Source: a virus (taxonomy: Duplodnaviria > Heunggongvirae > Uroviricota > Caudoviricetes). From it: 64,000 nucleotides of DNA. How positions within the stretch are numbered: position 1 is the stretch's first letter; the number at the start of each line of letters is the position of its first letter. Below the pieces are notes generated by a model, which was not told the origin of the DNA, searched no databases, and saw nothing but the letters and a program-made list of their open reading frames with translations. Below are positions 5,659 through 57,879 of the stretch, one piece after another. The DNA is taken from IMG/VR virus record IMGVR_UViG_3300022592_000245, positions 1 to 64,000 of that record. The stretch is one strand, 5' to 3'. A program made the position numbers and the translations under genes.

Positions 5659-5777
5659 AGTGAAATATTGGTTACTCGGATCATTGAAATCAAGGATGTT
5701 TGAAACACTAGACGAAGCAACACGATTTGCCGTTTATCAAGCACCATTTCAAAGTGTACACGAAATTTATAAAGTAT
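5649..5777 (+). CDS. small ORF (42 aa) not in the track, bridging two genes by start/stop overlaps
   Basis: MYKVKYWLLGSLKSRMFETLDEATRFAVYQAPFQSVHEIYKV. Its stop overlaps ATG 5776. Confidence 0.25.
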
Positions 5778-6351: not shown

Positions 6352-6353
6352 AA

Positions 6354-7187: not shown

Positions 7188-7399
7188 ACGTAGTAATAGA
7201 CAGCGGACAGTACAGAGCCGAAGTATGGGAGCCAATGACTCCGGGTTGGGAATTTAGAGAACCATACCCGGAAGAAGTCTATATAGAAATAAATCAGTGG
7301 TGCATGGATACACTTAAATACCATGCTCGCACAGCATATCATATATTTGATTTTAAAAATCAAAAGGATTTAGAATGGTTTCTCTTAAGGTGGTCGTAG
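7178..7399 (+). CDS. hypothetical small acidic protein
   Basis: 73-aa ORF that overlaps both neighbours. Confidence 0.3.
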   Translation: MDIDVVIDSGQYRAEVWEPMTPGWEFREPYPEEVYIEINQWCMDTLKYHARTAYHIFDFKNQKDLEWFLLRWS

Positions 7400-15575: not shown

Positions 15576-15928
15576 ACTCACATATAAACAACTTTTTTGA
15601 ACATCATAATAGGCAAATTGAAAAACTTAACAACCAAAGACGATACTGGCTTTACGCAAGTTCTGTAGTTTCAATCGGAATTATTTTTTTAATTTTTGGT
15701 TGGGGGTGGATTGATCAGCTACATTCTGCACCACTATGGTGGGTAATTGCATCTTCGATGCTTATTATCTCAGCTAACTGGTGGTACTGGACTATGAAAG
15801 TTATTCGAATTATTTTAACACACCAACAAGCCGAATATCATTTACTACAAGGTATCCTAATTGAATTGAATGAATTTAAAAACGATATTAAGCCATTGGC
15901 AAATCGTAATGTTGACAAGTCTAAATAA
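15572..15928 (+). CDS. small integral membrane protein
   Basis: The track ORF starts at 15509, inside the upstream gene. ATG 15572 overlaps the upstream stop (ATGA). Two TM helices. Confidence 0.4.
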   Translation: MNSHINNFFEHHNRQIEKLNNQRRYWLYASSVVSIGIIFLIFGWGWIDQLHSAPLWWVIASSMLIISANWWYWTMKVIRIILTHQQAEYHLLQGILIELNEFKNDIKPLANRNVDKSK

Positions 15929-18645: not shown

Positions 18646-29272
<10,627 letters not shown>

Positions 29273-29273
<1 letters not shown>

Positions 29274-35500: not shown

Positions 35501-38435
35501 CACAGCATTGCGTCATTCAATGTACTTAAACAACCAACAAGGGTTGTATATTGGCATGAACGAAAACCAAAAGTCGGGTGTATTCTCAGGCAACTGGAGC
35601 TTTAATACAGATGGCTCATTATCATTGCCACAAGAAAGTATTGTCGGCGGCTTTGTTAACCAAAGTGGTAATGGCAGTTGGAATGAATGGGCAACAGCCG
35701 GTGTTACAGGACCAAACGGTACTGTATATGTTGTAGGCGGCGAAAGCAATATAAATCAATCATTTGTTACAGCGGTAGATAAAACTGGTACTACGTTATG
35801 GAGAAAGAGTATCAACACAATAGATGTTGGTGACGGCTCTGGTAGTAACAATCCACAAGAGATGAACATCAAGTTTGATGTTGCTCATAATCTATTATAT
35901 GCTGGTTTTGACTTTGGTAACAGTACAGGTGTGTTTAGTTTAATACCTGCTACAGGTGTGGTAGATAGCTCTTGGGTTATTAAAGGCGGCACTGATGGTA
36001 ATCAAACTATCTCGCAAAAATCGTTTACTGTTGATGCTGTTGGTGATCCTATTATTGCTGGACACTCGTTCGGTGCTTACAATACCCGTAACGGCTTAAC
36101 TGCTACTAAAGGTACAGACGGCAACGGCTATGATTACATAAGTGTTGCCTTAAGCGATATCACTAGTGATGTTGCATCTATGAACAGCAACTGGGATGTT
36201 GACATTGACGGTACAGGCAACTGGTACGACTCAGACTTTAATACTTACTACGGCATTCCAGCAGTATACAACGGTACTCCGGGTGTGGGCGGTCTTCAGT
36301 TATCAACAGAAGGTACTGCGTACAGCGCAGGCGCAGTAACTGGCTACGACGGGTATGGTATAGACATAGATTCTAGCTTATGGACCGATCAAACTAAGTT
36401 AGGTAATGTACTAGCCCAGACTAACGGTGTACACTTTACAGTTGTGATTGGCAGTTTAACTCCAGGTGTTGATCAAACAGTATATACATTTAGTAGCGTT
36501 AGCGATTGGAGTGTGCCTACTGGTACAGTTTATCACATGGATGGTAACTGGACACTAGTATCCGGAACTGGTACAGTTACTACTTCTACTGACATTATGT
36601 CTATTACCTACGGTTCAGTAATGAAACTTAACCTGTATACATATATCAATCGTAGTAACGGTTTAATATATGATGATGGCGTTAATCTTTTTGATTATGG
36701 AACAAACTATCAAGCTGGCGACACACTGAAGATTCCTGGTAGTTTACTAGGTGGACGTGATGGTGGCTGGATCATGTCAGCTCAGCCTAACGGTACAAAC
36801 GTTAATGGGGACGTATTATTCTTTAGCATAGCGGCTTATCCAACATTGGGAACCGATATTCCAGCTGGTACATTGTTTAGATACCAAGGTGTAAACCATC
36901 TAAATCAAACAGTTGTATCAGTTGTGGACAACGGCGAGGGTGATTGGTTTGTAACTATCACTGGTGGATTATCATCATATGATACTGTAGACTTCTTTGC
37001 TGGTAACGACTATCAGTTTACATGGCAAGGTAGCTACATTTCAGAAGGCCAGTGGCTTCCAGCAGAAGCTGTACGTTTATCAGTGAATCAAACAATCACT
37101 GCACAGATTACATATAACGTAAGAAGTCCCGAAGGACAACAGGCGTTTGTATGGACTCCTAACTGGTCACATACTTACGGTTCAACAAACTATGATGAAT
37201 ACTTCAATGATGTAGCCTATGATGCGGTTAACGATCGAGTACTTGTTACTGGTTATTTCCAGCAAAACGGTAGTGATAGCGAACTTTTAGTCATGTCCCT
37301 GGACAATGCCAATAGCGGTGCTACTATATGGCAAAAGTTTGTCGGAGATAACAACATCGGTAACTATGGTTATAGTAGCAGTATTGATGTTGACAGTAGT
37401 GGCAACGTGTTTACCATTGGTACAAACGACAACGGCCAAGCAATGATTACCAAACAGAACGGTCTAGATGGTTCAATCACGTGGCAGTCTGTACAAACTG
37501 ATCACAACAACTGGAACTATGACCCACAAGGCCGAGTAGACGCAAATGGTGATGTTTATTTTGGCAGAGTATATTACGACAACCGTGTGAATCACTATGT
37601 ACTTGGCCTTACCAAACTCAACAGCGGCAATGGTACCTTAGCATGGTCAAGAAGAATCACTAACATTCAAGGCTACTGGATGTTTGATGGTTGGGATACA
37701 TTCCAACAGGCCATCAGCATTGGTGATGGACAGATACAATGGAGTGGATATGTAAGTGACATCAACAACGACTACAATGATGCCATTACTGTTAGCTTGC
37801 CACTAGACGGTAGCGGCATTGGTACATACGGACGTTGGATTGTAGAAGACGATACCAATACTGCTATACTGTCAGGTAACGATAGCTATCAGATAACTCC
37901 ACCGGTTCCATACGTGGCAACTGATGCTATTACATTCACACTATCCAGCCCAACTATCAACGTAAGTGATGTCAGTGCCGCTGTTATCACTAGAAATAAC
38001 ATCGAGTTGGGCGGTGGATCGATTGTATTTGCCGATGGTAGCGATATTACACAAGCTGGTATTAGTAGAGCACTGACAGATAAGGGTGATAACACTACCT
38101 ACTTGAACTTTGAACACAATGGCAAGTTTATCTACTTTAACGGTAATCAAGGCAGTTCAACCGTTCGTGTTCCGCAAAACAGCGACACCAAACTTCCGAT
38201 AGGATTTACAGTTAGCCTTGTAATAGACAACTTTGACGGTAGTAGTGTATATGTTAACACAAGTAACGATACCAGTAACGGGTTACATGTCAGTGCTGTG
38301 GGATTCAGTCAAACTTATAGCAATAATAACTGGTGGCGTCTTGGCAATGATGGAAACACTGGTATCTACACGCTAATGAAAGTTGATACCAATCGTTGGG
38401 TCCTAAGCGGTCCAAGCATACTAGACGACTATTAA
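32574..38435 (+). CDS. giant virion fibre/structural protein (1953 aa)
   Basis: Gly/Thr/Ser/Asn/Trp-rich beta-structure-like composition, in series with the other fibre genes. Confidence 0.65.
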   Translation: MTMQPFKIQSPTLSINGVNIDTSAQGKLVIPGVTRAGTSVAIEVNDTGDQTHSWGVGADYTQLVIIDGYQFAVLNGNVVSPIVGWEVATYAANAIDGEGYIDGISVVTGGAGYTGEAVTYSQTMWATYAPMSDPIANFGAGAWLQIPFAVRCGAGEIQSEFGSGSGSGLVQRSVNYPYGESGDTAGTMALDPSGNVYVCTADWADAAQTFEVDTGEDYLAGQAAGDIVFSIPQSVYTNLASIINTQNPGDWTITCSLDDAVGTFAVNSISTWSFSSGDFNGQQGWAFNVGTLGINYPTINESVPAGTTITLNYTGVQPAIWTQSNLGRLSVDNQILTSRPDLIGGESAIGVFNNSLDMFVQSNLDHSFAEVWLQNSDTSAPTAKINVKAAGPDYGPAGVQTWQFDAQGGLTFPDNTVQSTAYTGQSGSSAGELYIFVNADGTVITSTDGITWGQPQASGVPGCGNDSGPGTQGGIGKAEVHGGVIVYTRSDIGLDTITPQTGMYYSTVIGTATLCAGTDSFFGDDLFWNEVHYFNATARWVAVGFAQGTTMYPVVAHSLNGISWTVVPANSSFLYGYLDGYSAQFTDVVYNAVSSQYVISAIRTTQGPAYGGMFVTSDITTAIDGTNWVDVNINGWRLAYFPQVFWGGETGLVFVVNQKDDGTFGLWEATPTFINPTNLLDPGNWQAEYGYGTTNGWLESALFDNLGYVPDISEIAYNNNVFIVTTRDGQVFVQPDAPATYVTIPSPYTANINDIVRNASGDGLPTTIHFTDITGNGPAADGEKIVISGVTSHTENNSTTQQSYNGTYYIKNNGGSYELYLDSALTQPWDTSTYWPVDTNTGILTWSHGEWLDAAGVSGDFVFVGNDDEQVFRSADFGLTWTQEQDVTGRYFNDFAYGTFGSGGALNELVNGAHTVVLDADGNLNLEDGAHSGQYGRIQSLNGYPTLMAYGGESGHGGPELDWMDSNNPTADFFSNTALRHSMYLNNQQGLYIGMNENQKSGVFSGNWSFNTDGSLSLPQESIVGGFVNQSGNGSWNEWATAGVTGPNGTVYVVGGESNINQSFVTAVDKTGTTLWRKSINTIDVGDGSGSNNPQEMNIKFDVAHNLLYAGFDFGNSTGVFSLIPATGVVDSSWVIKGGTDGNQTISQKSFTVDAVGDPIIAGHSFGAYNTRNGLTATKGTDGNGYDYISVALSDITSDVASMNSNWDVDIDGTGNWYDSDFNTYYGIPAVYNGTPGVGGLQLSTEGTAYSAGAVTGYDGYGIDIDSSLWTDQTKLGNVLAQTNGVHFTVVIGSLTPGVDQTVYTFSSVSDWSVPTGTVYHMDGNWTLVSGTGTVTTSTDIMSITYGSVMKLNLYTYINRSNGLIYDDGVNLFDYGTNYQAGDTLKIPGSLLGGRDGGWIMSAQPNGTNVNGDVLFFSIAAYPTLGTDIPAGTLFRYQGVNHLNQTVVSVVDNGEGDWFVTITGGLSSYDTVDFFAGNDYQFTWQGSYISEGQWLPAEAVRLSVNQTITAQITYNVRSPEGQQAFVWTPNWSHTYGSTNYDEYFNDVAYDAVNDRVLVTGYFQQNGSDSELLVMSLDNANSGATIWQKFVGDNNIGNYGYSSSIDVDSSGNVFTIGTNDNGQAMITKQNGLDGSITWQSVQTDHNNWNYDPQGRVDANGDVYFGRVYYDNRVNHYVLGLTKLNSGNGTLAWSRRITNIQGYWMFDGWDTFQQAISIGDGQIQWSGYVSDINNDYNDAITVSLPLDGSGIGTYGRWIVEDDTNTAILSGNDSYQITPPVPYVATDAITFTLSSPTINVSDVSAAVITRNNIELGGGSIVFADGSDITQAGISRALTDKGDNTTYLNFEHNGKFIYFNGNQGSSTVRVPQNSDTKLPIGFTVSLVIDNFDGSSVYVNTSNDTSNGLHVSAVGFSQTYSNNNWWRLGNDGNTGIYTLMKVDTNRWVLSGPSILDDY

Positions 38436-38444
38436 GGATCCACA

Positions 38445-40679
38445 ATGAGTATTATACAAGGCGTTATAGCAAGTATGGGGGCAAGTGCTCCCCCTCCTCC
38501 TCCTCCATACTACGGTTCAATCTTTACACTTGAACCCGCGGTGTCAGCATTTAGTGGACAAATAGGTTGGTGGTCTTGGGGCGGATCGATTACGGCGCCA
38601 TCAGTGGTATCATCTAATCCACCAACACGTGATGCTTACACTTATCCAGACGGTGAAGCTGAGTATGTATACACATTTAACGGTACTGACAACTGGATGA
38701 TTAGTCCACAGTTGACCACTACCGGTGCGTGGCCCGATGGTAACATTACCGTCGACATGTGGTTTTATCCAACGTCATACGGGATAACATTACTTGCCGA
38801 ACTAGGTCAAAATACTGGACCAAATGTCGGGTACGACTATAACATGCTGGAAATCGACAGTAGCGGATACCTATTAGCAACAGTATTTCCAAGTGGGCAT
38901 ATAACAAGTCCAAACACAGTGACGCTCAACGCTTGGAATCATGTTTACTTTTTCCACGATGTACAAAATAGCTTACGATTAGAACTCAACGGCAACCTTG
39001 ATGGTTCCCATGCTGTTAACGGTACAGCATCTAGCGGCTACACACCCCCAGGTCAACGATACTTTGGTATCGGTGGTGGAGGTAACGGCACCAACATGGG
39101 CAATGTATCATACTTCCAAGGCAAGATTGGTACTGTATACATTTATGATACTGTAGCACAGTCTTCATACAACGCAACTAAGATTAAACATGCAGTACCT
39201 GAGTTGTTGCTAAATCTTGATGCAAGTAATCCAGCGAGTTATGCGGCACAGTATACAGTAACAGTTAGTGCTGTTACAGACAGCGGAACTAAGATACATA
39301 TCCCTACAGCATTTAGTGCCAACATTGGTAATCAAGTTACAGTGGGATATCCGTTCACTACACAATGGGGCGGTTATCACGGTACAGTGACAAACATAAG
39401 CACAGGTACTGGCTCTTTTGGGGCAGAGTGGATATTTACAGTTGACACTAACGTAGCCATTGGGTTTGCCGGTGGAGACAATATGACATTTGGAAGTGCA
39501 TCAACAACTACTTGGTACAACCTAGTATCAGGCGGACACGATGCTACATTTGATTCAGCACCAGCGTTCTACAGCACTGGTGTTAAGTCCATTGACTTTG
39601 CTGGTTACAACTTTGCCACTTTGCCAGCCGACATATGGTTTAATCAAGATTTGACCATTGTATCATGGGTCAAGGTCCACAGCTACGCTAACTGGGAACG
39701 TATTATAGATTTTGGTAACGGAGCAGGGGTTAATACTGTACTGCTAGCCGCAAGCGCCGGTGTCAGCGGAAACCCGGCATTGAGAACCGAAGGCACTCAG
39801 TTTACAGCCACTAACTATCAACTACCAGTTAACACGTGGGTACAGGTAGCGGGTAGAGTCAAAGCTGATGGTGGAGGCACTATATTTGTCAATGGCGATC
39901 AGATGATGAATTATTCAGGCATGGCTATACCTGTAAATACAACAAGAAGCAACTGTTACATTGGTAAGAGCAACTGGCCTGATGCCTTACTGAATGGCGA
40001 GATGGGTGAGATACAAATCTATCATAGTGCCTTAAGTGATGCTGTTATTACAGCAAACTATAATAGCACCCGATCTAAATATCTTCCCTCTAGTCTCAGT
40101 TTCTCACCAAGTAGCACATCATACCTAGGAGTACAGAATACGCAAAGCGATTGGGCGTTAGGTACAACTTGGACTATTGAGTGGTGGAGCAAAGCAACTA
40201 CCGCATCAGGCCCGGGTACTATCTTTACTGTGATGGGTCAAAATTTTGATGGTAACGGCATTGACGTATATTACCAAAACGGAAACTTAATCATCAACAA
40301 CGGCACAACACTAACTGCCGAACCTACTCCTGGATCATGGACACACGTTGCTTTAGTCAGTAACGGAACACAAACAATAGCGTATCTAAACGGTGGCGCA
40401 CAGTATGTCGGCGGTGCTTGGAATCTCAATAACTCTAGTAATGATCTAGTGATTGGAAAACGTGGGCCTGGAAACTTCCAGTACTTTAACGGCAACTTGG
40501 CTAACATTAGAATCAGTACTACAGCCAAATACACCGATACATTTACGCCATCTAAAACTTATGGTGTTGAATCAGATACTAAGTTGTTCTTAGGCGGTAC
40601 TACACCTCTAGTTGACGGTACTGGCAATCATCCTATAGACAATCAAGGCGCAGTGGTTAGTACGGACTTTCCAACTTAA
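38445..40679 (+). CDS. structural protein with a poly-Pro N-terminus and three concanavalin-A-like/LamG-like jelly-roll domains
   Basis: SAPPPPPPYYG. Three recurring blocks (NAWNHVYFFHD…LNGNLDG…GKIGTVYIYD; NTWVQVAGRVKADGGGTIFVNGD…GEIQIYHSAL; GSWTHVALVSNGTQTIAYLNGG…GNLANIRIS). Confidence 0.55.
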   Translation: MSIIQGVIASMGASAPPPPPPYYGSIFTLEPAVSAFSGQIGWWSWGGSITAPSVVSSNPPTRDAYTYPDGEAEYVYTFNGTDNWMISPQLTTTGAWPDGNITVDMWFYPTSYGITLLAELGQNTGPNVGYDYNMLEIDSSGYLLATVFPSGHITSPNTVTLNAWNHVYFFHDVQNSLRLELNGNLDGSHAVNGTASSGYTPPGQRYFGIGGGGNGTNMGNVSYFQGKIGTVYIYDTVAQSSYNATKIKHAVPELLLNLDASNPASYAAQYTVTVSAVTDSGTKIHIPTAFSANIGNQVTVGYPFTTQWGGYHGTVTNISTGTGSFGAEWIFTVDTNVAIGFAGGDNMTFGSASTTTWYNLVSGGHDATFDSAPAFYSTGVKSIDFAGYNFATLPADIWFNQDLTIVSWVKVHSYANWERIIDFGNGAGVNTVLLAASAGVSGNPALRTEGTQFTATNYQLPVNTWVQVAGRVKADGGGTIFVNGDQMMNYSGMAIPVNTTRSNCYIGKSNWPDALLNGEMGEIQIYHSALSDAVITANYNSTRSKYLPSSLSFSPSSTSYLGVQNTQSDWALGTTWTIEWWSKATTASGPGTIFTVMGQNFDGNGIDVYYQNGNLIINNGTTLTAEPTPGSWTHVALVSNGTQTIAYLNGGAQYVGGAWNLNNSSNDLVIGKRGPGNFQYFNGNLANIRISTTAKYTDTFTPSKTYGVESDTKLFLGGTTPLVDGTGNHPIDNQGAVVSTDFPT

Positions 40680-40696
40680 AACAACAAGGAGCGACA

Positions 40697-41446
40697 ATGC
40701 CACAAAATAACTATCAATGGAAAAGAGATAAAGCAGATCCGCGTGATCATGCTTTTGCTCCAAGACTAACAACATTACCTACAAGTGTAGACTTACGTGC
40801 TAACTGTTCAGCTATCGAAGACCAAGGTAACTTAGGTTCATGTACTGGCAATGCCATTGCTGGTATTGTAGAATATCTATGCCGCAAAGCAAAACGATCT
40901 ACTGATGTCAGCAGACTCTTTATCTATTATCAAGAACGTGTATTAGAAGGAACTGTTAACTATGATAACGGTGCTTACATCCGCGATGGTATTAAAGCTG
41001 TAAACAAGATTGGTGTGCCTACTGAAACATTATGGCCATACACTATTAATAGATTTGCCTATCGCCCTAGTCAAGCTGCATACATTAATGCTGCTACACG
41101 CAAGGCAGTTGGTTATCAAAAGTGTGCTAACTTTGCCGCAGTTAAAGCTGCCTTGGCACAAGGTTATCCCGTTGTAGTCGGGTTCGATGTGTATGAAAGT
41201 TTTGAATCAGATGCAGTTGCAGCTACTGGTCAAATGCCTTATCCTAACAAAGCAACTGAACAACTACTAGGCGGTCATGCCGTAGCACTAGTCGGTTATA
41301 ATGACTCTACTGGTAAGTTCATTGCCCGTAACTCGTGGGGTACAAGCTGGGGCGATCATGGCTACTTCTACATGCCATACCAGGTAATCCAAGACACCTC
41401 AATGAGCGATGACTTCTGGATCATTACAAGTATTACTAACCCCTAA
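40697..41446 (+). CDS. papain-family (C1) cysteine peptidase
   Basis: DQGNLGSCTGNAIAG (catalytic Cys context QGxCGSCWAF-like), GGHAVALVGYND (His), NSWGTSWGDHGYFYMPY (Asn/Trp block). Confidence 0.75.
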   Translation: MPQNNYQWKRDKADPRDHAFAPRLTTLPTSVDLRANCSAIEDQGNLGSCTGNAIAGIVEYLCRKAKRSTDVSRLFIYYQERVLEGTVNYDNGAYIRDGIKAVNKIGVPTETLWPYTINRFAYRPSQAAYINAATRKAVGYQKCANFAAVKAALAQGYPVVVGFDVYESFESDAVAATGQMPYPNKATEQLLGGHAVALVGYNDSTGKFIARNSWGTSWGDHGYFYMPYQVIQDTSMSDDFWIITSITNP

Positions 41447-42029
41447 TACCCTGTTCTTTTAGTTTAACACAAGTATCACACTTTTTGCAAGGTGTGATAT
41501 TTTTTTCTGTGTAGGTAGGATGTCTACATGACCAAAACTTATCTCGTAAGCTAGTTGGCAAGCTGTCATATATTTCACGTTTGTTTAGATTGAGCACAGG
41601 ATAGATTTTCTCCACTGGCGTAAACGCCTGGAGTATTTTATTAGCACGAACACGGCGTTCTTCCAGTGCATGGTTCCCATCATTGGCCTGCATACCCATT
41701 GCCACTTTTACAATGTTGGGATTAGCAAAGCACACATATCCAGCAAAGAAGTTCATAGTGTCTGAATCAAACATGTATTGTTTATTGTAAACAACTGTGC
41801 CTATTTCGCTTTCACTGTATTCAAACTCGAACTTGAGTTCCTTTAGTTCTTTAAGAGCAATATCTACAGCCAGTGCTTCTGCTCGGTGTCTATTTTCAAT
41901 ATTCTTGTTATGAACATGATGTATGTGAATACGATAGTCCTTGTATTCAGGATCTGTTAATAGTTTGTAAACCATACCCAGGCTATCTAGGCCGCCTGAG
42001 TACATGGCTAGGATTGTTTTTTGTTCCAT
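41436..42029 (-). CDS. queC: QueC-like PP-loop ATPase (7-cyano-7-deazaguanine synthase family)
   Basis: N-terminal SGGxDS PP-loop (AMYSGGLDSLGM). C-terminal Cys cluster CRHPT…CKKCDTC, as in QueC zinc sites. Confidence 0.65.
   Translation of the reverse strand: MEQKTILAMYSGGLDSLGMVYKLLTDPEYKDYRIHIHHVHNKNIENRHRAEALAVDIALKELKELKFEFEYSESEIGTVVYNKQYMFDSDTMNFFAGYVCFANPNIVKVAMGMQANDGNHALEERRVRANKILQAFTPVEKIYPVLNLNKREIYDSLPTSLRDKFWSCRHPTYTEKNITPCKKCDTCVKLKEQGIRG
41474..41507 (+). terminator. rho-independent terminator (TATCACAC-loop-GTGTGATA followed by T7), embedded in the 3' coding region of the convergent queC-like gene
   Basis: Inverted repeat plus T-run immediately after the peptidase stop. 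Confidence 0.5.
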
Positions 42030-42466
42030 ATATAAAATGTATAAACCTCGTTAATGGGATGTTCTTCTGGTTGTGGTGTTAGTTCGTGTGCTTTTGGAAA
42101 GTAACAGGCATATTTTGTGGGCCAATTAGGATTAAGAAATGCACGAGCTATAAATCTGTTACAGTTTGCCAATACAATGGGCAACAATCGATGGGTAAAC
42201 TCCATGCCAAATGCCAATGCTCCATCAACTATAATTGTGTCCCAATGCGTATCTAAGTTGAACCAGTCTTTGTTCTTAATCTTAGGATCTGCGTATTTGG
42301 GCTCTAAATCCCATGCTTCAGTTGCAAGTGGTAGCAACAGCCGAGTACTGCCTAGTAACAATACACGCCCGGTACAATAGCTTTCAAATACCGAATAATC
42401 AGCATCATCGGGTGCTGCTGGCCATTTCAAGCTAGTCCAGTATTCTTTATCTGCGTATATATCCAT
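42008..42466 (-). CDS. hypothetical protein, co-oriented with and overlapping the queC-like start
   Basis: 152-aa ORF. Weak resemblance to a methyltransferase motif I (VLLLGSTR) only. Confidence 0.35.
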   Translation of the reverse strand: MDIYADKEYWTSLKWPAAPDDADYSVFESYCTGRVLLLGSTRLLLPLATEAWDLEPKYADPKIKNKDWFNLDTHWDTIIVDGALAFGMEFTHRLLPIVLANCNRFIARAFLNPNWPTKYACYFPKAHELTPQPEEHPINEVYTFYIWNKKQS

Positions 42467-45504: not shown

Positions 45505-46070
45505 CCAGTAATATAAATTTCTCTGCTATTGACGAACAATACCCAATTGCTGGAAAAGACAACGATAGCCAAGGTTTCCGTGATAACTTTGGAATCATTA
45601 AAACAGCTCTAGGAGCAGCTAAATCGGAAATTACCGAATTACAATCTAATTCCTTATTAACGCAAAATTTAGTAAACGGTGATCCGGTTAATAACGACCT
45701 AAATGGCAGTTCAATTAATAACGGTTATTACAATAACTTCCACGGTGTATCTTATATTGCAACTGTTAACGGAACTGCGAGTATAAATGTAAGTACAGCT
45801 AGTATCTTTGTTTATACCCTTACTGGTAACACCACATTTACATTTACAGGTTGGCCTGCAAATACCTACTACTGTAAAGTAAAAGTTCACTTTGTAAGTA
45901 GCGATAGTACATCACACACTGCATCGCTATATTCCGCAGGCGGTGGAACTGTTCGTTTAGATGGACAATTTACTGGTTCAATACCAGGAAATGGAAAGCA
46001 CCAAATTATAGAAGCATGGTCATACAACGATGGTGCTACTGTATTTGTTAATTTTTTAGGTAGCTATTAA
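45501..46070 (+). CDS. hypothetical structural protein
   Basis: ORF with ATGA overlap. Thr/Ser/Asn/Gly-rich. Confidence 0.4.
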   Translation: MTSNINFSAIDEQYPIAGKDNDSQGFRDNFGIIKTALGAAKSEITELQSNSLLTQNLVNGDPVNNDLNGSSINNGYYNNFHGVSYIATVNGTASINVSTASIFVYTLTGNTTFTFTGWPANTYYCKVKVHFVSSDSTSHTASLYSAGGGTVRLDGQFTGSIPGNGKHQIIEAWSYNDGATVFVNFLGSY

Positions 46071-46300
46071 TGCACCCGTTAATTAATGATTTGACTTCGC
46101 TTAAAGACGGCGAACTAGAAAATAAAATTAGTGAACTAACTCGTAAGTATTTTTCTACTCATAATTTTGAACTACAGCAGCAAATTTCTATGGTTATCGA
46201 TACCTATAAAGAAGAATTGAGCAAACGTAGACAAGCTGAATACGAAAAATTGATGCAATCTCGCAATAAAGATCTTGACAAACTAATTAACGTCAACTAA
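46070..46300 (+). CDS. small coiled-coil protein
   Basis: 76-aa helical K/E-rich ORF. Confidence 0.35.
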   Translation: MHPLINDLTSLKDGELENKISELTRKYFSTHNFELQQQISMVIDTYKEELSKRRQAEYEKLMQSRNKDLDKLINVN

Positions 46301-46310
46301 ACTATAGGCT

Positions 46311-46805
46311 ATGCGCCTAGATCAATTTAGCAATCCCGTCTTTAACGAACAAGATATTTTTGAAGCCTTGTACAAAGGACATAACATCTCTGGCGAAATG
46401 TTTGTTGACAAAACTACATCAACTAAATCTCTCGAAAAAACAGCTGGGTTCAATTTCTGGTTACCGTTAGATAACTATGACTTATCCCTAAGTGACTACG
46501 ATGCCGCAATGCAAGCTGATTGGAACATGCCCGACGGCTATAAAAATATGGATATCGAGGAATGGCTTTATAGTCAAGGCGGTAATAATGTAAGAGTTCG
46601 TGAAGAATTAGACGCATTTAAAGAACGAAATATGCTAGACTTGCTACGTTGGCTTAAATATTTCGTAGATACTTGCGAAAAAGAAGGAATTGTATGGGGT
46701 GTAGGGCGCGGGTCAAGTGTAGCTAGCTATGTACTTTACTTGTTAGGCGTTCACAGCATAGATCCTATCAAATATAATTTAGACTGGCAGGAATTCCTGA
46801 GATAA
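46311..46805 (+). CDS. DnaE (Pol III alpha)-like fragment: a 164-aa ORF whose C-terminus matches the conserved palm-entry block of DnaE
   Basis: …FVDTCEKEGIVWGVGRGSSVASYVLYLLGVHSIDPIKYNLDWQEFLR* versus E. coli DnaE …[50 protein letters not shown]. Confidence 0.4.
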   Translation: MRLDQFSNPVFNEQDIFEALYKGHNISGEMFVDKTTSTKSLEKTAGFNFWLPLDNYDLSLSDYDAAMQADWNMPDGYKNMDIEEWLYSQGGNNVRVREELDAFKERNMLDLLRWLKYFVDTCEKEGIVWGVGRGSSVASYVLYLLGVHSIDPIKYNLDWQEFLR

Positions 46806-46831: not shown

Positions 46832-47092
46832 ATGGCAATGAAAGAACAACAAAGACAAGTTTACCGCAGTATGCAGGGTAAAGAAGTAGATATGCATAAA
46901 CTTGTTATGCAAAACGAAATGACTGTTGCAGTGGGCAACGTAAAAGTTAATGCTCGCGGAGACGAACTAGGCCCAGGCGGACAAATTATCCGTAAGCGCG
47001 AAGAAGTTTTAGCTGCGGCTACTAATGCAGTACCTGCACAAAACAGTCAACGCAAAAACATCGACAATATGGACCCAGAAGGTAACGAATGA
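46832..47092 (+). CDS. hypothetical protein
   Basis: 86-aa ORF with a strong RBS (GAGGAG) upstream. Confidence 0.4.
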   Translation: MAMKEQQRQVYRSMQGKEVDMHKLVMQNEMTVAVGNVKVNARGDELGPGGQIIRKREEVLAAATNAVPAQNSQRKNIDNMDPEGNE

Positions 47093-47487
47093 GAGCACAA
47101 GCAAGTAAACTAAGGCCAATTCAATCTCATATCTTAGTTAGAGATATGAACTTTGCTGATCAACGAACGGCTAGTGGAATATATATCCCTAGCGATGACG
47201 GTAAGTCAGAGGGTGTTAAACCTCGTTGGGCTAGAGTATTTGCAATAGGTCCAGATCAAACCGAAGTTAAAGTCGGTGAATGGATCCTAGTAGAGCATGG
47301 TCGCTGGACACGAGGTTTAGAAGTAGAAGAAGACGACGGAACTAAGTTTACTATCTGGAGAGTTGATCCAAATGGCATCATGATGTCAGCAGATGAACGC
47401 CCAGCTGGTCCGGAGTTTGGACAATTTGTAAGTCCAGAACACGGTTCCGTTCATAACCCACAAGACTTTATTCAACCTAGACTGTAA
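47089..47487 (+). CDS. GroES/cpn10-like co-chaperonin
   Basis: LRPIQSHILVRDMNFADQRTASGIYIPS…VFAIGPD…VKVGEWILVE matches the cpn10 pattern (RPL.DRVLVK…T.sGI.lP…VvAvG.G…VkvGD.V). Confidence 0.55.
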   Translation: MRAQASKLRPIQSHILVRDMNFADQRTASGIYIPSDDGKSEGVKPRWARVFAIGPDQTEVKVGEWILVEHGRWTRGLEVEEDDGTKFTIWRVDPNGIMMSADERPAGPEFGQFVSPEHGSVHNPQDFIQPRL

Positions 47488-47559: not shown

Positions 47560-47793
47560 ATGAGCACATTTACAGAAGCAGTAGAAGATATTAAAAAAGC
47601 AAAAAGCGTTTTAGAAACACAGCCAACCGAAGTTGCTAAACATCCAGATCCAAAAAAACATCTATATATTAGCCTTGCTAAGAGCTTTATTAGAATTGTA
47701 GCAGGTGTTACGCTTGTAGTAGGATTTCCCGTATGGTGTGGTGTCGGACTTATCGCTGCCGAAGTACTTGGCATTTTTGAGGAACTAGTATGA
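47560..47793 (+). CDS. small membrane protein (77 aa)
   Basis: The track ORF 47512 start lies within the promoter. ATG 47560 has an AAGGAG RBS. TM helix IVAGVTLVVGFPVWCGVGLIAAEVLGIF. Confidence 0.45.
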   Translation: MSTFTEAVEDIKKAKSVLETQPTEVAKHPDPKKHLYISLAKSFIRIVAGVTLVVGFPVWCGVGLIAAEVLGIFEELV

Positions 47794-48704
47794 GAGAACT
47801 TTGGGTAGAAAAATATCGCCCTAAAACAATTGATGGTTACGTGTTTAGAGACGACCATCAAAAAAATCAAGTTAAACAATGGATTAAAGAAGGAACTATT
47901 CCGCATTTACTCTTTAGTGGCAATGCCGGAATTGGTAAAACTACCCTCGCTAAAATTCTATTCAATGAATTAGAAATTAACGATTTAGATATTTTAGAAA
48001 TTAACGCATCACGTACTAACTCCGTTGATGATGTTCGTGATAAAATTGTTAACTTTGTACAAATGATTCCATTTGGAGATTTTAAAGTAGTGTTGCTAGA
48101 CGAAGCAGATTACTTGTCGCAAAACGCTCAAGCAGCACTTCGTGGTGTTATGGAAGAATACCATACTACAGCAAGATTTATTCTAACTTGTAATTATCCA
48201 AACAAGATTATTCCAGCATTACACAGTCGATGTCAAGGATTTCACATTGCTAAGGTTGATCAAAACGAATTTACTGCCCGTGTTGCAGAAATTTTAATTA
48301 CTGAAGAAGTTGAATTTGGTATCGATACCTTAGATACCTTTGTTAAAGCAACATATCCAGACTTGCGTAAATGTATTAATATGGTTCAAATGAATAGTAT
48401 GGATGGTACCTTGCATACACCAGAAAGAGGTGATAGCGGAACTACTGACTATAAACTAGAAATGGTTGAGCTATTCAAGGCTGGAAAAATTAAAGAAGGT
48501 CGTAAACTAGTTTGCGCACAAGCTCGCCCAGAGGAGATGGAAGAAATCTATCGCTGGCTATACGATAACATTGAAATTTTTGGCGAAGAAACAAAGCAAG
48601 AAAAAGCTATTTTAATTATTAAAGAAGGTATTCGAGATCACGGACTAGTAATTGACGGTGAGATTAACCTTGCAGCAACTTTAGTTAAATTATCGTTTTT
48701 ATGA
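47790..48704 (+). CDS. sliding-clamp loader small subunit (RFC/gp44-like AAA+ ATPase)
   Basis: RFC box WVEKYRPKTIDGYV. Walker A GNAGIGKTT. Walker B VVLLDEAD. SRC-like …LTCN. Confidence 0.8.
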   Translation: MRELWVEKYRPKTIDGYVFRDDHQKNQVKQWIKEGTIPHLLFSGNAGIGKTTLAKILFNELEINDLDILEINASRTNSVDDVRDKIVNFVQMIPFGDFKVVLLDEADYLSQNAQAALRGVMEEYHTTARFILTCNYPNKIIPALHSRCQGFHIAKVDQNEFTARVAEILITEEVEFGIDTLDTFVKATYPDLRKCINMVQMNSMDGTLHTPERGDSGTTDYKLEMVELFKAGKIKEGRKLVCAQARPEEMEEIYRWLYDNIEIFGEETKQEKAILIIKEGIRDHGLVIDGEINLAATLVKLSFL

Positions 48705-50053: not shown

Positions 50054-50632
50054 ATGCACGATATTTTAGACATTATACGCAACATTGACGACTTATACGA
50101 GAACAATACTAACTTGTCCGTACTAAAAGACTTTGAACGAGTATTAGACGAACTAGACGTTTACGTTTACGAGAACTGGGAAGAAGGCGAATTAGCCTAT
50201 GGCCCTAAAGTAGACCGTCATTGGATCACTGCTGGCTTTATGTGGGAAGAAAAGAAAATGCCTAATCCTATTGCTGCAAAGCGATTAATGGAACTAGGTT
50301 GCAAGGTTAACTATAAAAAGTCACATCTTGTAGAAGCTCGTCCTATTCGTCAACAAACAGATTTACGTCCAGGTACAAAGAAAGGCAAACTTGATCATAA
50401 GCCTATTTGGATTGTAGAAATTCAAATGCCAAAGAAAATTGCATTTGACATTTACAAAGGTTACATGGACAAACTTAAAAACGATTACATGGAGAATAAT
50501 GCTCCATCAAATGGAACTCCACTTCCAGCAGCACCGGGCGGAGCAGCACCAGCAGCACCAGGCGGAGCAGCACCAGCAGCACCAGCAGGCGCACCACCAG
50601 CAGCAGGAGCGGCACCAGCGCCGGCAGTTTAA
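50054..50632 (+). CDS. hypothetical protein with a C-terminal Pro/Ala/Gly tandem repeat
   Basis: …LPAAPGGAAPAAPGGAAPAAPAGAPPAAGAAPAPAV. The tandem repeat is visible at the nucleotide level. Confidence 0.45.
   Translation: MHDILDIIRNIDDLYENNTNLSVLKDFERVLDELDVYVYENWEEGELAYGPKVDRHWITAGFMWEEKKMPNPIAAKRLMELGCKVNYKKSHLVEARPIRQQTDLRPGTKKGKLDHKPIWIVEIQMPKKIAFDIYKGYMDKLKNDYMENNAPSNGTPLPAAPGGAAPAAPGGAAPAAPAGAPPAAGAAPAPAV
50520..50625 (+). repeat. tandem direct repeat (about 24-nt unit ccaggcggagcagcaccagcagca ×2 plus degenerate copies) encoding the PAAPGGAA repeat
   Basis: Direct repetition read by eye. Confidence 0.5.
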
Positions 50633-50633
50633 T

Positions 50634-51368
50634 ATGACAAAGATTAATGAAAGCCTTCGCGCTGATGACCTAAGACACTTTGTTAAAAGTGTTTTTGAAA
50701 TCGACAGCTACCAAAGTAAAATCGGCGATGATCAAGATATTGTCACTTTAAGTTTTACAGTCGACGGAGAAGATCCTGCATCAGACTTAGAACATTTTAT
50801 CGAAATGGGGTTTGATTATGTACTAGATGCCGATGTTAGTCCGGGCGAACTAGATGATGGCAAATATCGTGTTTACGTAGAACTAGAGCGCAATCGTCAT
50901 GTTGGTAAACAAATTAGAGAAATATTAGACGGAATTGAAAAATTAACAGGCGAAGATGACATGCGTTTTCGTTGGTTTAAAAGTTTTCGTAGTCAGGCTG
51001 CTACATTAGAAAATCTCGATGCAGCAATACCTGCTAACCCTAAAGACTACAAACTTGCAACTGAACAACACAGTTTAAATAATTTTAGTAATTTTTTTAG
51101 CAACAGTTATGCAGATGAATTAAATGTAGTTGGCGAGTCAATTAGTTTTAAAAGATTAAATGGCGATACTGTTAATTTTAATATTGTTGCAAGTGGACCA
51201 AAGAGTTATGTGTATGAAACCTTAACTGGCCCAATTATGTTAGAAAGTAAAGATGTAGCAGAGTCTATATTCCTTACAAAATATATTGGAAACTACAACA
51301 TTACTAAAGTAGGTAACACATTCGTATTTGAACGCAGCGGCTGGGCCGTGGCACTTGAAAGGAAATAA
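50634..51368 (+). CDS. hypothetical acidic protein
   Basis: The track ORF 50439..51368 begins in the upstream gene's repeat. ATG 50634 directly follows the upstream stop. Confidence 0.45.
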   Translation: MTKINESLRADDLRHFVKSVFEIDSYQSKIGDDQDIVTLSFTVDGEDPASDLEHFIEMGFDYVLDADVSPGELDDGKYRVYVELERNRHVGKQIREILDGIEKLTGEDDMRFRWFKSFRSQAATLENLDAAIPANPKDYKLATEQHSLNNFSNFFSNSYADELNVVGESISFKRLNGDTVNFNIVASGPKSYVYETLTGPIMLESKDVAESIFLTKYIGNYNITKVGNTFVFERSGWAVALERK

Positions 51369-54215: not shown

Positions 54216-54244
54216 TTGACAGGTCCAATTAAATAGTGTACTAT
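54216..54244 (+). promoter_or_regulatory. consensus sigma70-like promoter TTGACA-17-TACTAT
   Basis: TTGACA at 54216-54221, 17-nt spacer, TACTAT at 54239-54244. This makes the track's ATG 54236 a non-start. Confidence 0.5.
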
Positions 54245-54269
54245 ACATTATTATTTGGACCTGTTCTTA

Positions 54270-55126
54270 TGACTGATTATTACAATATACTCGGTGTTAG
54301 CCCAAACGCTAGCCCAGACGAAATTAAAAAAGCCTACAGAAAATTGGCTAATCAGCATCACCCCGATAAAGGCGGCGATCAAGCCAAGTTTAAAGATATT
54401 AGCGTTGCATACGATACCTTAAGCGATGCTAACAAAAAAGCCGAATACGATCAAATGCGTATGGGCGGTGGTCGTCAACATCATTTTAATAGCGGCAATT
54501 TCCAAGACTTTGCAGATATTTTTGGCGGAGGGTTTGATCCCTTTGGATCAAGACCTGGCCCGTTCGGAGATATGTTTGGGAGAAGAATGCCTAAAAACAG
54601 AGATTTAAATATCCAGTGTCAGATTACTTTGCTCGATGCTTATCAAGGTAAGCAACTCGAAGCAAATTATACATTGCCAAGCGGTCGCCCACAGACTGTA
54701 ATTATAAATGTTCCACCAGGTGTAAGTCATGGCGAAACAATTCGATATAACGGGTTAGGCGATGACTCTGTTACAGGATTACCACGTGGTAATTTAAACG
54801 TTACAGTAATTGTAATGCCCGATCCATTGTTTACACGCAACGGTGACGACTTATACACTACAATCTTTATTAGCCCAATTGAAGCAATGATTGGTTGTCG
54901 TAAAAAAGTTAAATTTATTAATGGCTCTGAGAAGGAAATTGACATCAGACCCGGTATTGAAACTGGTGTAGAGTTTGCAAGTCCAGGACACGGCTTTGAT
55001 AATCCTCATACTGGCGGCAAAGGTAGATTTATTACTGTTATTAGTATAAGAACACCGAGCATTGTTGACCCGATTATTGTTCAAAAACTAAAAGACATTC
55101 AAGATGAAATTAGTAGTAAATCCTGA
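54270..55126 (+). CDS. DnaJ-like J-domain co-chaperone (no zinc-finger region)
   Basis: J domain DYYNILGVSPNASPDEIKKAYRKLANQHHPDKGG (HPD). DnaJ-like C-terminal beta domains. Confidence 0.7.
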
Positions 55127-55613
55127 TCCAATACTAAAACAGACAGCAGTCGAATGGGACTTTGCTGTAGATACTAACTCTGAAGAAGTAGAAGCTGAAA
55201 TGGTTTCTATTATGAAAACATTACACGGGCGTGGCTTAGCTGGCAATCAGGTTGGGCTTTTAAAGCGAGTATTCACAATACACCTCGATAACCATCCAGA
55301 ATTAAAAGAACCATTTGCAATGTTTAACCCAAAAGTTATTTCAGTAAATGGCGCTCACGAAGAAATGTTTGAAGAAGGATGTTTAAGTTTTCCAAATCTT
55401 TGGTTACAAGTTAAACGTCCAATGAGCATTACTTCAGAATACTTTGACAAAACTGGAAAATTGTGTATAATAGAACTAACTGGAATAGATGCCAGGTGCT
55501 TTTTACATGAGCTAGACCATTTAAATGGAACAGTTTTTACAGAAAAAGTTAGCCAAATGAAGCTATTACTAGCTCGCAAAAAACAAAGGAAAAATAATGG
55601 TAGAACCAAGTGA
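55104..55613 (+). CDS. def: peptide deformylase
   Basis: GLAGNQVG (motif 1), EGCLSFP (motif 2), HELDHLNG (motif 3, HExxH). Confidence 0.8.
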   Translation: MKLVVNPDPILKQTAVEWDFAVDTNSEEVEAEMVSIMKTLHGRGLAGNQVGLLKRVFTIHLDNHPELKEPFAMFNPKVISVNGAHEEMFEEGCLSFPNLWLQVKRPMSITSEYFDKTGKLCIIELTGIDARCFLHELDHLNGTVFTEKVSQMKLLLARKKQRKNNGRTK

Positions 55614-57879
55614 TAATTTACAAGCAGTATTCGAAAGTGCTATTGAAACTGCTAAAAAACTACACCACGAGTACTTAACAATAGAGCATTTGCTATTTGC
55701 TATGTTAGGGGAAGACTCGATGGCCGCTGCTATACGTGGCTACGGTTCTAATCCGTCTGATCTCAGACAAGCTCTTGCAGACTACTTACAAAATAAATGC
55801 GAAGAAATTACAGTTCCAGACGTTGTAGTTAAACCAAAAAAGACAAAAGCAATTGAACGTATTCTTAATCGTGCATTTACACAAGTTTTATTCAACGGTC
55901 GTCAAAAGATTGAACCGACAGATGTGTTTCTTGCTATGATGACAGAGAAACGCAGCTGGGCATTTTACTTTATTAGCCAAGCAAATATTGAAAAAGATAA
56001 GTTTGCTGACTATCTTAACCACAATGTCGAAGCCGAAGAAGGCGGAGAAGAAGAAAACCCACGTGGCGATAAAGCCCTTGCGCAATTTACAACTAACCTT
56101 AACGAAGCAGTTAAGAAAAACAAAATCGACCCTGTTATCGGTCGTGTGGACGAGCTAGAAAACATTGCGTTATCAATGGGCCGTCGTAGCAAGAACAACG
56201 TAATCCTTGTTGGTGATCCTGGTGTGGGAAAGACGGCAATAGCCGAAGGTCTTGCCTACAACATAGTTAAGGGCGCAGTTCCAGATTTCCTCAAGGATTA
56301 TACTGTATTCAACTTGGACATCAGTGCAATGTTGGCCGGTAGTAAATACCGCGGTGACTTTGAAGAACGATTCAAAGCAGTACTTAAAGGTTTAAGTAAA
56401 AAAGGTAAGACTGTGCTGTTCATCGACGAGGCCCACATGATCTCTGGCGCAGGATCTGCTAGCAACTCAGCTAACGATCTCGCTAATATGATGAAACCTG
56501 CTCTAAGCAAAGGCAACATTAAAGTTGTGGCCAGTACTACCTGGGAAGAATATCGTAAGCATTTTGAAAAGGATCGTGCATTGATGCGTCGTTTCCAACG
56601 CATTACAGTCGACGAGCCAACTACTGAAGTTACTTTACAGATTCTTAAAGGTATTAAGAAATATTATGAGCAACATCATAATGTTAAAATCAAAGACGAT
56701 GCACTAAACGCTGCTATCAAGCTGTCAGTTAAGTATCAGGCCGATAAGAAACTTCCAGATAAGGCTATTGACTTAATCGATCTAGCTTGCTCACGTTTTA
56801 ATTTGAAACTATCGGATGATCGCGTTGTAGGCGAAAACGAAATTCAATTCGAACTTAGTAAGATTGTTAACATTCCAGAAGAACAAGTTGCCGAAACAGA
56901 AAGTCAAAATCTTGCAACATTACAAGATAAGCTGTCAGCAGATGTGTTTGGACAGGATCTTGCTGTACAAGAAGTTGTTGACAAGATTATGGTTGCACAG
57001 GCTGGATTGAAACCTGAGAACAAGCCAATTGGTTCGTTTGTGTTCATGGGTCCAACTGGTTGTGGTAAGACTGAAACTGCTAAAGCATTGGCTAAGAATT
57101 TGGGTGTTAAATTGCTACGTTTTGATATGTCAGAGTATCAAGAGAAACATAGTATTTCTAAGCTAATTGGTAGCCCTCCGGGATACGTTGGCTTTGAAGA
57201 GAACGCTGGTTTGTTGATTACACAGGTTCAAGAGAATCCAAATGCTGTTTTGCTGTTTGATGAAGTTGAAAAGTCACATCCGGATGTATCAACTGTATTG
57301 TTGCAGATGATGGATAATGGTTTTATTACAGGATCAAATGGTAAACGTGCTGACTGTCGTCAACTTATCTTGATTTTAACTACTAATGCTGGTGCGCAGG
57401 CAGCAGAAAAGAATCAAATCGGATTCGGACAACAGGAAAAAGAATATAGCGACAAAGAGCTTAACAAATTCTTTACACCGGAGTTCCGTAATCGCTTAGA
57501 CGGTATTATTACCTTTAACAAGCTAGGCAAGGAAACAATGACTAAAGTTGTTAATAAATTCCTTGATGAAGTACGTGAGCAAGTTAAAGAGAAAGGTATT
57601 AAGATTAAAGCAGATAAAGATGCTATTACATGGCTTATCAATAAAGGCTTTGATCCTAAGATGGGTGCTCGTCCATTACATCGTGTTATCGACAAGGAAA
57701 TTAAACGTGATCTTGCTAAGATGATGTTGTTCGGTGATTTGAAGAGTGGTGGATGGTTAACTATTACTGTCGATAACGACAAGCTAGTGTTGGTTGCGAA
57801 ACCTAAAACACCAAAAGTACCATTGTTATCAATCGAAGGGTTAAATGATACTCTACAAGACAACCAATCGATTATTTAA
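55597..57879 (+). CDS. clpA: ClpA-type AAA+ unfoldase (two AAA modules, no ClpB middle domain)
   Basis: Clp_N-like N-terminus. Walker A VGDPGVGKTAIAEGLA and FMGPTGCGKTETAKALA. Confidence 0.85.
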   Translation: MVEPSDNLQAVFESAIETAKKLHHEYLTIEHLLFAMLGEDSMAAAIRGYGSNPSDLRQALADYLQNKCEEITVPDVVVKPKKTKAIERILNRAFTQVLFNGRQKIEPTDVFLAMMTEKRSWAFYFISQANIEKDKFADYLNHNVEAEEGGEEENPRGDKALAQFTTNLNEAVKKNKIDPVIGRVDELENIALSMGRRSKNNVILVGDPGVGKTAIAEGLAYNIVKGAVPDFLKDYTVFNLDISAMLAGSKYRGDFEERFKAVLKGLSKKGKTVLFIDEAHMISGAGSASNSANDLANMMKPALSKGNIKVVASTTWEEYRKHFEKDRALMRRFQRITVDEPTTEVTLQILKGIKKYYEQHHNVKIKDDALNAAIKLSVKYQADKKLPDKAIDLIDLACSRFNLKLSDDRVVGENEIQFELSKIVNIPEEQVAETESQNLATLQDKLSADVFGQDLAVQEVVDKIMVAQAGLKPENKPIGSFVFMGPTGCGKTETAKALAKNLGVKLLRFDMSEYQEKHSISKLIGSPPGYVGFEENAGLLITQVQENPNAVLLFDEVEKSHPDVSTVLLQMMDNGFITGSNGKRADCRQLILILTTNAGAQAAEKNQIGFGQQEKEYSDKELNKFFTPEFRNRLDGIITFNKLGKETMTKVVNKFLDEVREQVKEKGIKIKADKDAITWLINKGFDPKMGARPLHRVIDKEIKRDLAKMMLFGDLKSGGWLTITVDNDKLVLVAKPKTPKVPLLSIEGLNDTLQDNQSII

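Follow-up and report, generated by a model that had tools for sequence, protein, structure and literature searches.

We analyzed a 64,000-nucleotide stretch of viral DNA (IMG/VR virus record IMGVR_UViG_3300022592_000245, positions 1 to 64,000; Caudoviricetes), hereafter called the window, and in it an open reading frame (ORF) of 164 amino acids (aa), here called the N-unit, whose C-terminal part resembles a segment of DnaE, the alpha subunit of DNA polymerase III (Pol III alpha). A sequence-only reading of this region had noticed that the product, which ends in GVGRGSSVASYVLYLLGVHSIDPIKYNLDWQEFLR, closes on a conserved DnaE block and stops immediately afterwards, and both observations held up. 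The Pfam profile PF07733 (DNA_pol3_alpha), with which that reading had proposed to search, gave a significant match to residues 94-163 at profile positions 25-94 of 260 (E=3.5e-12; 46.9 bits compared to a gathering score of 23.9 bits), and these positions are the sole part of the profile that the ORF matches. A phmmer search of PDB sequences returned Pol III alpha chains only and aligned residues 80-163 with residues 309-392 of the E. coli subunit. Likewise, comparison of the family profile with E. coli DnaE (hhalign) paired residues 93-164 with 322-393 (E=7.7e-6, probability 84%), and the same segment matched positions 367-429 of phrog_405, a 1190-aa phage DnaE family (E=5.5e-12). The AlphaFold2 (AF2) model of the monomer, with a predicted local distance difference test (pLDDT) score of 77, agreed with these results, since its best Foldseek matches were the E. 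coli and M. tuberculosis Pol III alpha structures (probability 0.99-0.82). The match to the E. coli subunit spans 140 aligned columns and may reach into N-unit residues 1-92.

The C-terminal end of the ORF resembles the conserved block formed by E. coli DnaE residues 357-392. We assign this block to the palm, where it covers the nucleotide-binding motif GRGS and the helix that immediately precedes the first catalytic strand, and not to the PHP-to-palm junction, where it had been placed before; the domain boundaries are those reportedly drawn by Lamers and coworkers in 2006. R164 of the ORF aligns with E. coli N393, so that the stop codon directly follows the block and falls eight residues before the catalytic D401. 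The catalytic aspartate triad (E. coli D401, D403, and D555) is not within the ORF polypeptide, which ends at the N393 equivalent, and Pfam scans matched no PHP, thumb, fingers, beta-binding, or OB domain in it.

The ORF belongs to a large family of proteins of the same length. Residues 10-164 match positions 16-171 of the 171-position profile phrog_11127 (E=3.5e-37), and among 5.8 billion proteins searched there were 6,480 matches; the best 120 of these are all 163-169 aa long, are 65-77% identical to the ORF, and lie on contigs of up to 345 kb. All 80 of the 80 IMG/VR N-unit loci share the Met start and a [QR]EFLR end at the same codon, and the median pairwise dN/dS among these relatives, taken over pairs with unsaturated dS, is 0.19. 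Among cultured phages, tblastn found short N-unit homologues in PA5oct-like Pseudomonas phages, XacN1, Phosso, Atu_ph07, and the RaK2/GAP32/121Q group. The ORF is 37.7% identical to the PA5oct N-unit and 44% identical to GAP32-like (RaK2 group) N-units over residues 71-164, to which tblastn coverage of the latter is limited. The PA5oct, GAP32, and XacN1 homologues stop at the same alignment column as the ORF, and an alignment of the four contains invariant GRGS residues and 22 further invariant columns. Conservation is strictest in the G-R-G-S-S motif and the helix running to the stop, and divergence peaks in the first 92 residues. Gene order is shared as well: MIJ3/PA5oct, GAP32, XacN1, and the window all have the N-unit followed by a small ORF (phrog_14844), a GroES-like gene, another small ORF, and an RFC-like clamp-loader gene. 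No close relatives of the ORF were found in 185,579 bacterial and archaeal species genomes, and the cultured-phage database contains no DNA nearly identical to the window.

These results bear on the earlier suggestion that the ORF is a relic, namely a decaying piece of a full-length dnaE gene acquired from a host. The ORF does cover only ≈7% of DnaE and lacks any catalytic residue, and it misses the NCBIfam DnaE equivalog cut-offs by more than an order of magnitude (best score 42.9 bits compared to a cut-off of 1,182 bits). However, a decaying gene would not be expected to show a dN/dS of ≈0.19, the same start, length, and stop in 80 of 80 relatives, thousands of homologues of equal length, an end-to-end match to phrog_11127, and synteny kept across very distant phages; nor was any flanking DnaE debris detected in the window and 10 kb on either side of it. 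We consider decay hardly credible as an explanation and interpret the ORF, from its sequence and that of its relatives, as a complete functional gene.

A partner family and the seam between the halves

A second phage protein family, which we call the C-unit (phrog_11778; ≈190 aa), resembles the part of DnaE that follows. Its member in Ettore, a PA5oct-like Pseudomonas phage, has 200 aa, begins MAKVVTDVDIDV, and is encoded at 15145-15747, ≈43 kb from the N-unit gene; a Pfam scan of this protein recognized no domain. Searches returned between 1,050 and ≈8,000 C-unit homologues, and the best-scoring ones listed are mostly 185-200 aa long. The C-unit matched phrog_405 at positions 579-679 (E=3e-7), which places the two halves in collinear order on a full-length phage DnaE, and profile-profile comparison (hhalign) aligned it with E. 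coli DnaE residues 508-642 (E=7.5e-5). When the C-unit profile was compared with PDB sequences, the seven best matches were all Pol III alpha chains, aligned in four collinear segments, and the C-unit stretch tDvDiDvadRd was paired with PDIDIDFDDRR of M. tuberculosis DnaE1. Moreover, the AF2 model of the C-unit (pLDDT 88.6) had Pol III alpha structures as all of its top 13 Foldseek hits, with probabilities of up to 1.0 and TM scores of ≈0.5. Four motifs are invariant in the family and have equivalents in E. coli DnaE: D-x-D-x-D (D401/D403/D405), K-x-D (K553/D555), R-P (R639-P640), and Y-x-F-K-x-x-H (F756, K758, and H760). The gene has a conserved context between a UvsW-like helicase gene and primase/DnaB genes. 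Each half is thus encoded within a block of replisome genes, the N-unit by the clamp loader and the C-unit by the helicase and primase/DnaB.

The two families meet at a narrow seam. N-unit residues L163-R164 correspond to E. coli L392-N393, and C-units of the freshwater clade start with M-P-D-I-D-I-D-F, in which M1-P2-D3 corresponds to M399-P400-D401. Only five E. coli residues (394-398, PERVS) have no counterpart in either half, so by these alignments the cut appears to fall cleanly within the loop that joins the Gly-Ser helix to the first catalytic strand.

The families also occur together. C-units were recorded in 96 cultured-phage records, and the N-unit and C-unit counts nearly mirror each other by host genus (Escherichia 34 and 34, Salmonella 8 and 8, Erwinia 8 and 8, PA5oct-like Pseudomonas phages 11 and 11). 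Both halves are present in all 11 PA5oct-like records and in Phosso, Atu_ph07, XacN1, GAP32, Munch, 7t3, SE_PL, Vibrio phage 2.275.O, and others. In every genome found in both lists the genes are on the same strand, are never adjacent, and lie 15-224 kb apart: ≈15 kb in XacN1; ≈30 kb in Vibrio phage 2.275.O; ≈33 kb in GAP32, Munch, and SE_PL; ≈43 kb in PA5oct and Ettore; ≈182 kb in Atu_ph07; and ≈224 kb in Phosso. In PA5oct, the genes are at 187570-188022 and 143938-144537. The freshwater contig IMGVR_UViG_3300028392_000029 (223 kb; loci L068 and L512) likewise carries an N-unit locus at 188.5-191 kb and a C-unit locus at 17.2-18.7 kb on the same strand. The label "orphan" given to the ORF in the sequence-only reading was therefore dropped at the level of the family, since a cognate partner family exists and co-occurs with the N-unit family.

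That reading had also considered a polymerase gene split by an intron, intein, or homing endonuclease, with its remainder elsewhere. The split and the distant remainder were borne out in outline, and the proposed causes were not. If a single DnaE-like gene had recently been interrupted by a mobile element, its parts would be rejoined by RNA or protein splicing. The position of the break, in a loop just before a catalytic strand, would suit such an origin, as would a homing-endonuclease gene annotated a few kb from the C-unit gene in Ettore. Inteins in other polymerases formally occur at such loop sites. However, Pfam scans of the two halves found no Hint/intein domain, and the sequences leave no space for one, because one half ends one residue past the L392 equivalent and the other starts at the M399 equivalent. 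An intron is contradicted by the independence of the two genes, each of which runs from its own start codon to its own stop codon, and by the tens to hundreds of kb that separate them in complete genomes. A homing endonuclease is contradicted by the lack of HNH or GIY-YIG domains in the scanned ORFs directly flanking the N-unit gene. The ORF that follows the N-unit gene is a conserved, unrelated gene and uses a different reading frame. Finally, the same split is common to PA5oct, GAP32-like phages (RaK2 group), XacN1, Atu_ph07, and freshwater metagenomic lineages, and a split shared by such distant phages implies that it is ancient and stable. A recent interruption by a mobile element is thus very improbable.

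A possible two-subunit polymerase module

We searched for the C-unit of this genome in the sequence that could be read. When the six-frame ORFs of the window were all searched with E. coli DnaE (phmmer --max), only the N-unit ORF itself matched, and Pfam and PHROG scans of 30 other window ORFs found no DnaE piece. A polymerase of another family (family B) is present, which, together with a lack of other DnaE pieces, the sequence-only reading would have counted against a DnaE origin; that lack extends only to the 84 kb read here, whereas every relative checked does contain another DnaE piece. No shared flanking genes link C-unit loci to the window region, and a JGI metagenome scan with a concatenated N-unit and C-unit query found only relatives of up to 84% identity. 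In 10 of 80 IMG/VR C-unit loci (e.g., L114, 1216-2257), the gene immediately before that of the C-unit encodes a peptide deformylase; no C-unit gene adjoins the peptide deformylase gene of the window (55104-55613). A 399-aa ORF at 12855-14054 (phrog_11903) was rejected as a C-unit, as it has neither a DxD motif nor Pfam or PDB similarity. Locus L197, which comes from the same JGI sample, has a GC content of 31.5% compared to 39% and was on this ground not assigned to this genome, and sample-by-sample matching of N-unit and C-unit identities by eye was too noisy to serve as evidence.

A search with a freshwater C-unit profile provided a candidate partner, the 192-aa protein P0348, which is identical on at least 24 contigs, the longest of 345,679 bp. 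These contigs share a sample series with proteins of the window (ENA BUCK21-1, ERZ2731xxxx; JGI 33000225xx), and the GC fraction of the P0348 locus is 0.38 compared to 0.39 for the window. The P0348 locus (L378, 12301-16623) contains genes for a carbamoyltransferase (PF02543/PF16861) and a 2OG-Fe(II) oxygenase between primase and DnaB and, ahead of the C-unit gene, two more oxygenase-like genes (2OG-FeII_Oxy_5 and DUF6445). DNA bases could be the substrates of these enzymes.

The genome carries an 888-aa family-B polymerase gene (PF03104 and PF00136) ≈20 kb downstream of the ORF on the same contig, at ≈66.5-69.2 kb in window coordinates, whose product is expected to be the main replicase of the phage. 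Group 2.2 jumbo phages have a T4-type family-B polymerase and an RFC-like clamp loader (PMC7824862), and the genome fits this type because a clamp-loader gene is in the window and the family-B polymerase gene is downstream. Taking the sequence, profile, and structure-model comparisons together, we consider it likely that the ORF encodes the N-terminal subunit of a reduced, two-subunit nucleotidyltransferase of the Pol III alpha type (C-family, Pol-beta fold), typical of T4-like group 2.2 jumbo phages. The N-unit would supply palm helices and the GRGS loop, which in DnaE holds the triphosphate of the incoming nucleotide. The C-unit would supply the first catalytic strand, P-D-x-D-x-D (E. coli P400-D401-D403-D405), the third carboxylate in K-x-D, and the R-P and K..H finger motifs (E. 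coli K758/H760 for the latter). In nucleotidyltransferases with the Pol-beta fold, a Gly-Ser loop and acidic residues on an adjacent sheet form one active site (PMC7824862). With the loop on one protein and the carboxylates on the other, activity would require assembly across the seam; neither half would be catalytic alone, and we infer that the assembly is non-covalent. Three observations point to such assembly: the conservation of GRGS and the seam helix, the co-occurrence of the families, and the AF2 model of the N-unit monomer, which is disordered at residues 131-136 (pLDDT <50) and 154-164. These residues form the GRGS loop and C-terminal helix, which in the assembled module would pack against the C-unit sheet. 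Once assembled, the module would have no PHP domain, thumb, beta-clamp-binding domain, OB fold, or tau-binding domain, and most of the fingers would also be missing. Given these absences of thumb, most fingers, and clamp-binding domain, and the presence of a family-B replicase, its role is most likely accessory DNA synthesis or repair and not main replication; repair, gap-filling, or a specialized step at the fork are possibilities.

The N-unit could instead act alone or with different partners, as a domesticated fragment that serves as a clamp-loader/co-chaperonin adaptor or regulator or as a decoy of the host Pol III holoenzyme, its co-occurrence with the C-unit reflecting shared ancestry only. 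Several features would fit a separate function: the conserved neighbors of the N-unit gene are the GroES-like and clamp-loader genes and not the C-unit gene, the two genes are 15-224 kb apart, and the first 92 residues are family-specific. Moreover, the N-unit diverges faster than the C-unit, both in the comparison with PA5oct (37.7% compared to 44% identity) and in a freshwater relative with both genes on one contig (55% compared to 73%). In contrast, the strictest conservation falls in the nucleotide-binding motif and seam helix, for which there is no evident reason without an active site, and the GRGS loop and C-terminal helix are poorly ordered in the monomer model. Likewise, the C-unit takes up at the very point where the N-unit leaves off, every catalytic carboxylate in it is invariant, and the host-genus counts of the two families are nearly identical in cultured phages. 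A fragment acting alone, one of the origins put forward in the sequence-only reading, is not required by the data, and we regard it as unlikely.

Several points weigh against the two-subunit interpretation. The C-unit resembles cellular DnaE weakly by sequence alone (PDB hmmsearch, E=0.07-0.19), and its identity leans on the PHROG, hhalign, and fold comparisons. The two genes lie at distant loci instead of sharing an operon, an unusual arrangement if their products are obligate partners. Scanning with a C-unit HMM gave no hit in the window or in the 10 kb on its downstream (L169) and upstream (L172/L173) sides, and the upstream radical-SAM gene has neither a C-unit nor an N-unit gene at a distance of up to 10 kb in any of 80 IMG/VR relatives. 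P0348 was found at 100% identity only on contigs for which no physical link to this genome was found, and at least one other related jumbo phage is present in the same samples (L065). The literature searched contained no biochemical or genetic data on members of either family. Finally, a module that has no thumb and lacks most of the fingers is not assured of templated, processive DNA synthesis.

This last point leads to a variant in which the two subunits still assemble but do not form a conventional templated polymerase. The module would then be a minimal Pol-beta-fold nucleotidyltransferase with another job, such as short gap-filling, priming, or terminal transfer on the possibly modified DNA of the phage, or synthesis of a nucleotide product, or else an ancestral Pol III alpha core. 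The absence of a thumb and of clamp-binding and exonuclease domains and the truncated fingers favor this variant, under which activity could be gated by the joining of two subunits expressed from different replisome gene blocks. We hold it to be a real but clearly lesser possibility.

Gene neighborhood of the N-unit

The N-unit gene and its parts are listed with neighboring genes in Table 1. The protein quality-control set of the window is unusually full and comprises an SPFH/Band-7 protein, ClpP, the GroES-like co-chaperonin, DnaJ, peptide deformylase, and a double-AAA+ ClpA/ClpB-like ATPase.

Table 1. Positions of the N-unit ORF, its parts, and other features in the window
Feature	Position	Strand	Remarks
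76-aa ORF directly upstream of N-unit	46070..46300	+	ORF of same size and position in a 70%-identity relative; weak phrog_15348 match
N-unit ORF	46311..46805	+	164 aa, ATG to TAA; phrog_11127 member
N-terminal region, aa 1-92	46311..46586	+	Family-specific, faster-evolving; no DnaE alignment by sequence profiles
DnaE-homologous segment, aa 93-164	46587..46802	+	Palm helices, Gly-Ser loop, and next helix, up to the seam; hhalign, phmmer/hmmsearch against PDB, phrog_405
Gly-Ser motif, G132-R133-G134-S135	46704..46715	+	E. coli G361-R362-G363-S364; family-wide invariant columns
Stop codon TAA at conserved seam	46803..46805	+	One codon past the E. coli L392 equivalent
Small conserved gene, phrog_14844	46832..47092	+	Follows N-unit in PA5oct-like phages, GAP32, and XacN1; frame differs from N-unit; no DnaE similarity
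GroES/Cpn10-like (T4 gp31-like) co-chaperonin	47089..47487	+	PF00166, E=7.8e-8; phrog_931; synteny
RFC/gp44-like clamp-loader AAA+ subunit	47790..48704	+	PF00004, PF13177; conserved neighbor downstream of N-unit
Protein quality-control genes	489-1340, 2036-2671, 47089-47487, 54236-55126, 55104-55613, 55597-57879		
Giant-ORF region	18975-29273, 30185-32560, 32574-38435, 38445-40679, 40697-41446		

Other parts of the window are also of interest in their own right. Positions 5287-12795 encode a MazG-like pyrophosphatase, a 2OG-Fe(II) oxygenase, two radical-SAM/SPASM proteins, a 336-aa protein of no assigned function, and a B12-binding radical-SAM enzyme; shortly before the window start (L172, 1-1467), the opposite strand carries two further radical-SAM genes. 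This cluster could specify a peptide- or nucleic-acid-modification pathway. A 72-aa gene ≈8 kb upstream of the window start (L172, 2529-2747) has a Pfam match to eIF-1A/IF1 (PF01176) and is translation-initiation-factor-like. Two giant ORFs of 3,432 and 1,953 aa are flanked by genes for collagen-repeat, triple Laminin_G_3 (ConA-like lectin), and papain-family C1 peptidase proteins, and these are presumably virion fiber or decoration proteins. The plus-strand block is interrupted by two minus-strand genes (41436-42029 and 42008-42466). The first has a weak match to QueC (7-cyano-7-deazaguanine synthase), and PA5oct-like relatives have QueD and GTP cyclohydrolase genes, which hints at deazaguanine modification of DNA. 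A 192-aa ORF at 50054-50632 has a Pro/Ala/Gly-rich low-complexity tail (PAAPGGAAPAAP...) and overlaps a long ORF in another frame (50439-51368) by ≈190 nucleotides.

Relation to known polymerases

The split system itself is already known: Iyer, Anantharaman, Krishnan, Burroughs, and Aravind (2021, Viruses 13:63; PMC7824862) predicted a "minimal split Pol III alpha" computationally in group 2.2 jumbo phages and suggested that the module may preserve the ancestral core behind cellular Pol III alpha. In a separate study, Weinheimer and Aylward (2022; PMC9123017) reported PF07733 as the single gene that distinguishes a large cluster of marine jumbo phages. The window agrees with the description of Iyer et al. 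in its stand-alone ≈165-aa NTP-binding half with GRGS (phrog_11127, the N-terminal unit) and in its genome, that of a T4-like jumbo phage with a family-B polymerase, an RFC-like clamp loader, and no other Pol III domains. The Mg2+- and template-binding half of their system, on a distant gene, is phrog_11778, the C-terminal unit. Nothing essential differs, except that the ORF represents a divergent uncultured freshwater lineage. What is added here is this divergent member, the exact seam, the conserved residues, and the gene neighborhoods.

Compared to bacterial DnaE (E. coli, PDB 2HNH and 5FKV; Taq, 2HPI), the N-unit has a homologous palm segment (322-393) with the same G-R-G-S, and the C-unit has the D-x-D...K-x-D, R-P, and K-S-H finger motifs in the same order. 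Bacterial DnaE, however, is a single chain of ≈1,160 aa with PHP, thumb, full finger, beta-binding, OB, and tau-binding domains, whereas the split module would comprise two chains of ≈356 aa in total, in which short linkers replace the thumb (roughly E. coli 406-509) and ≈110 finger residues (642-751). Both halves are collinear on the full-length phage DnaE of phrog_405, exemplified by Bacillus phage Riggi gp42 and Streptomyces phage Urza gp53 and found in group 3.2 jumbo phages such as phage G. These are single genes for replicases of 1,026-1,161 aa, and Riggi gp42 and Urza gp53 proved to be full-length when checked for a split at the seam; in contrast, the split module coexists with a family-B replicase. 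In cyanobacteria, DnaE-n and DnaE-c are encoded by two distant genes and carry split-intein halves through which they are trans-spliced to full-length DnaE. The phage system is similar in drawing Pol III alpha from two distant genes, but its split site differs, it has no intein, and no covalent rejoining is expected. The N-unit also matched the extreme C termini of phrog_13169 (463 positions; 341-409) and phrog_7513 (461 positions; 388-439) over the segment from GRGS to the seam, and by this alignment a PHP-plus-N-palm protein that ends at the same seam may exist in other phage lineages.

In annotation, ORFs of this kind should neither receive the name "DNA polymerase III alpha subunit" nor be set aside as fragments. 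The seam, conserved residues, and neighborhoods defined here ease the design of expression constructs and mutants. The usual view of C-family polymerases is that they are large replicases of a single chain and specific to bacteria. A probable two-chain version of ≈356 aa that purifying selection maintains in thousands of T4-like jumbo phages beside a family-B replicase raises the questions of how small a Pol III-type active site can be and what role a second, bacterial-type polymerase core may have at a T4-type replication fork.

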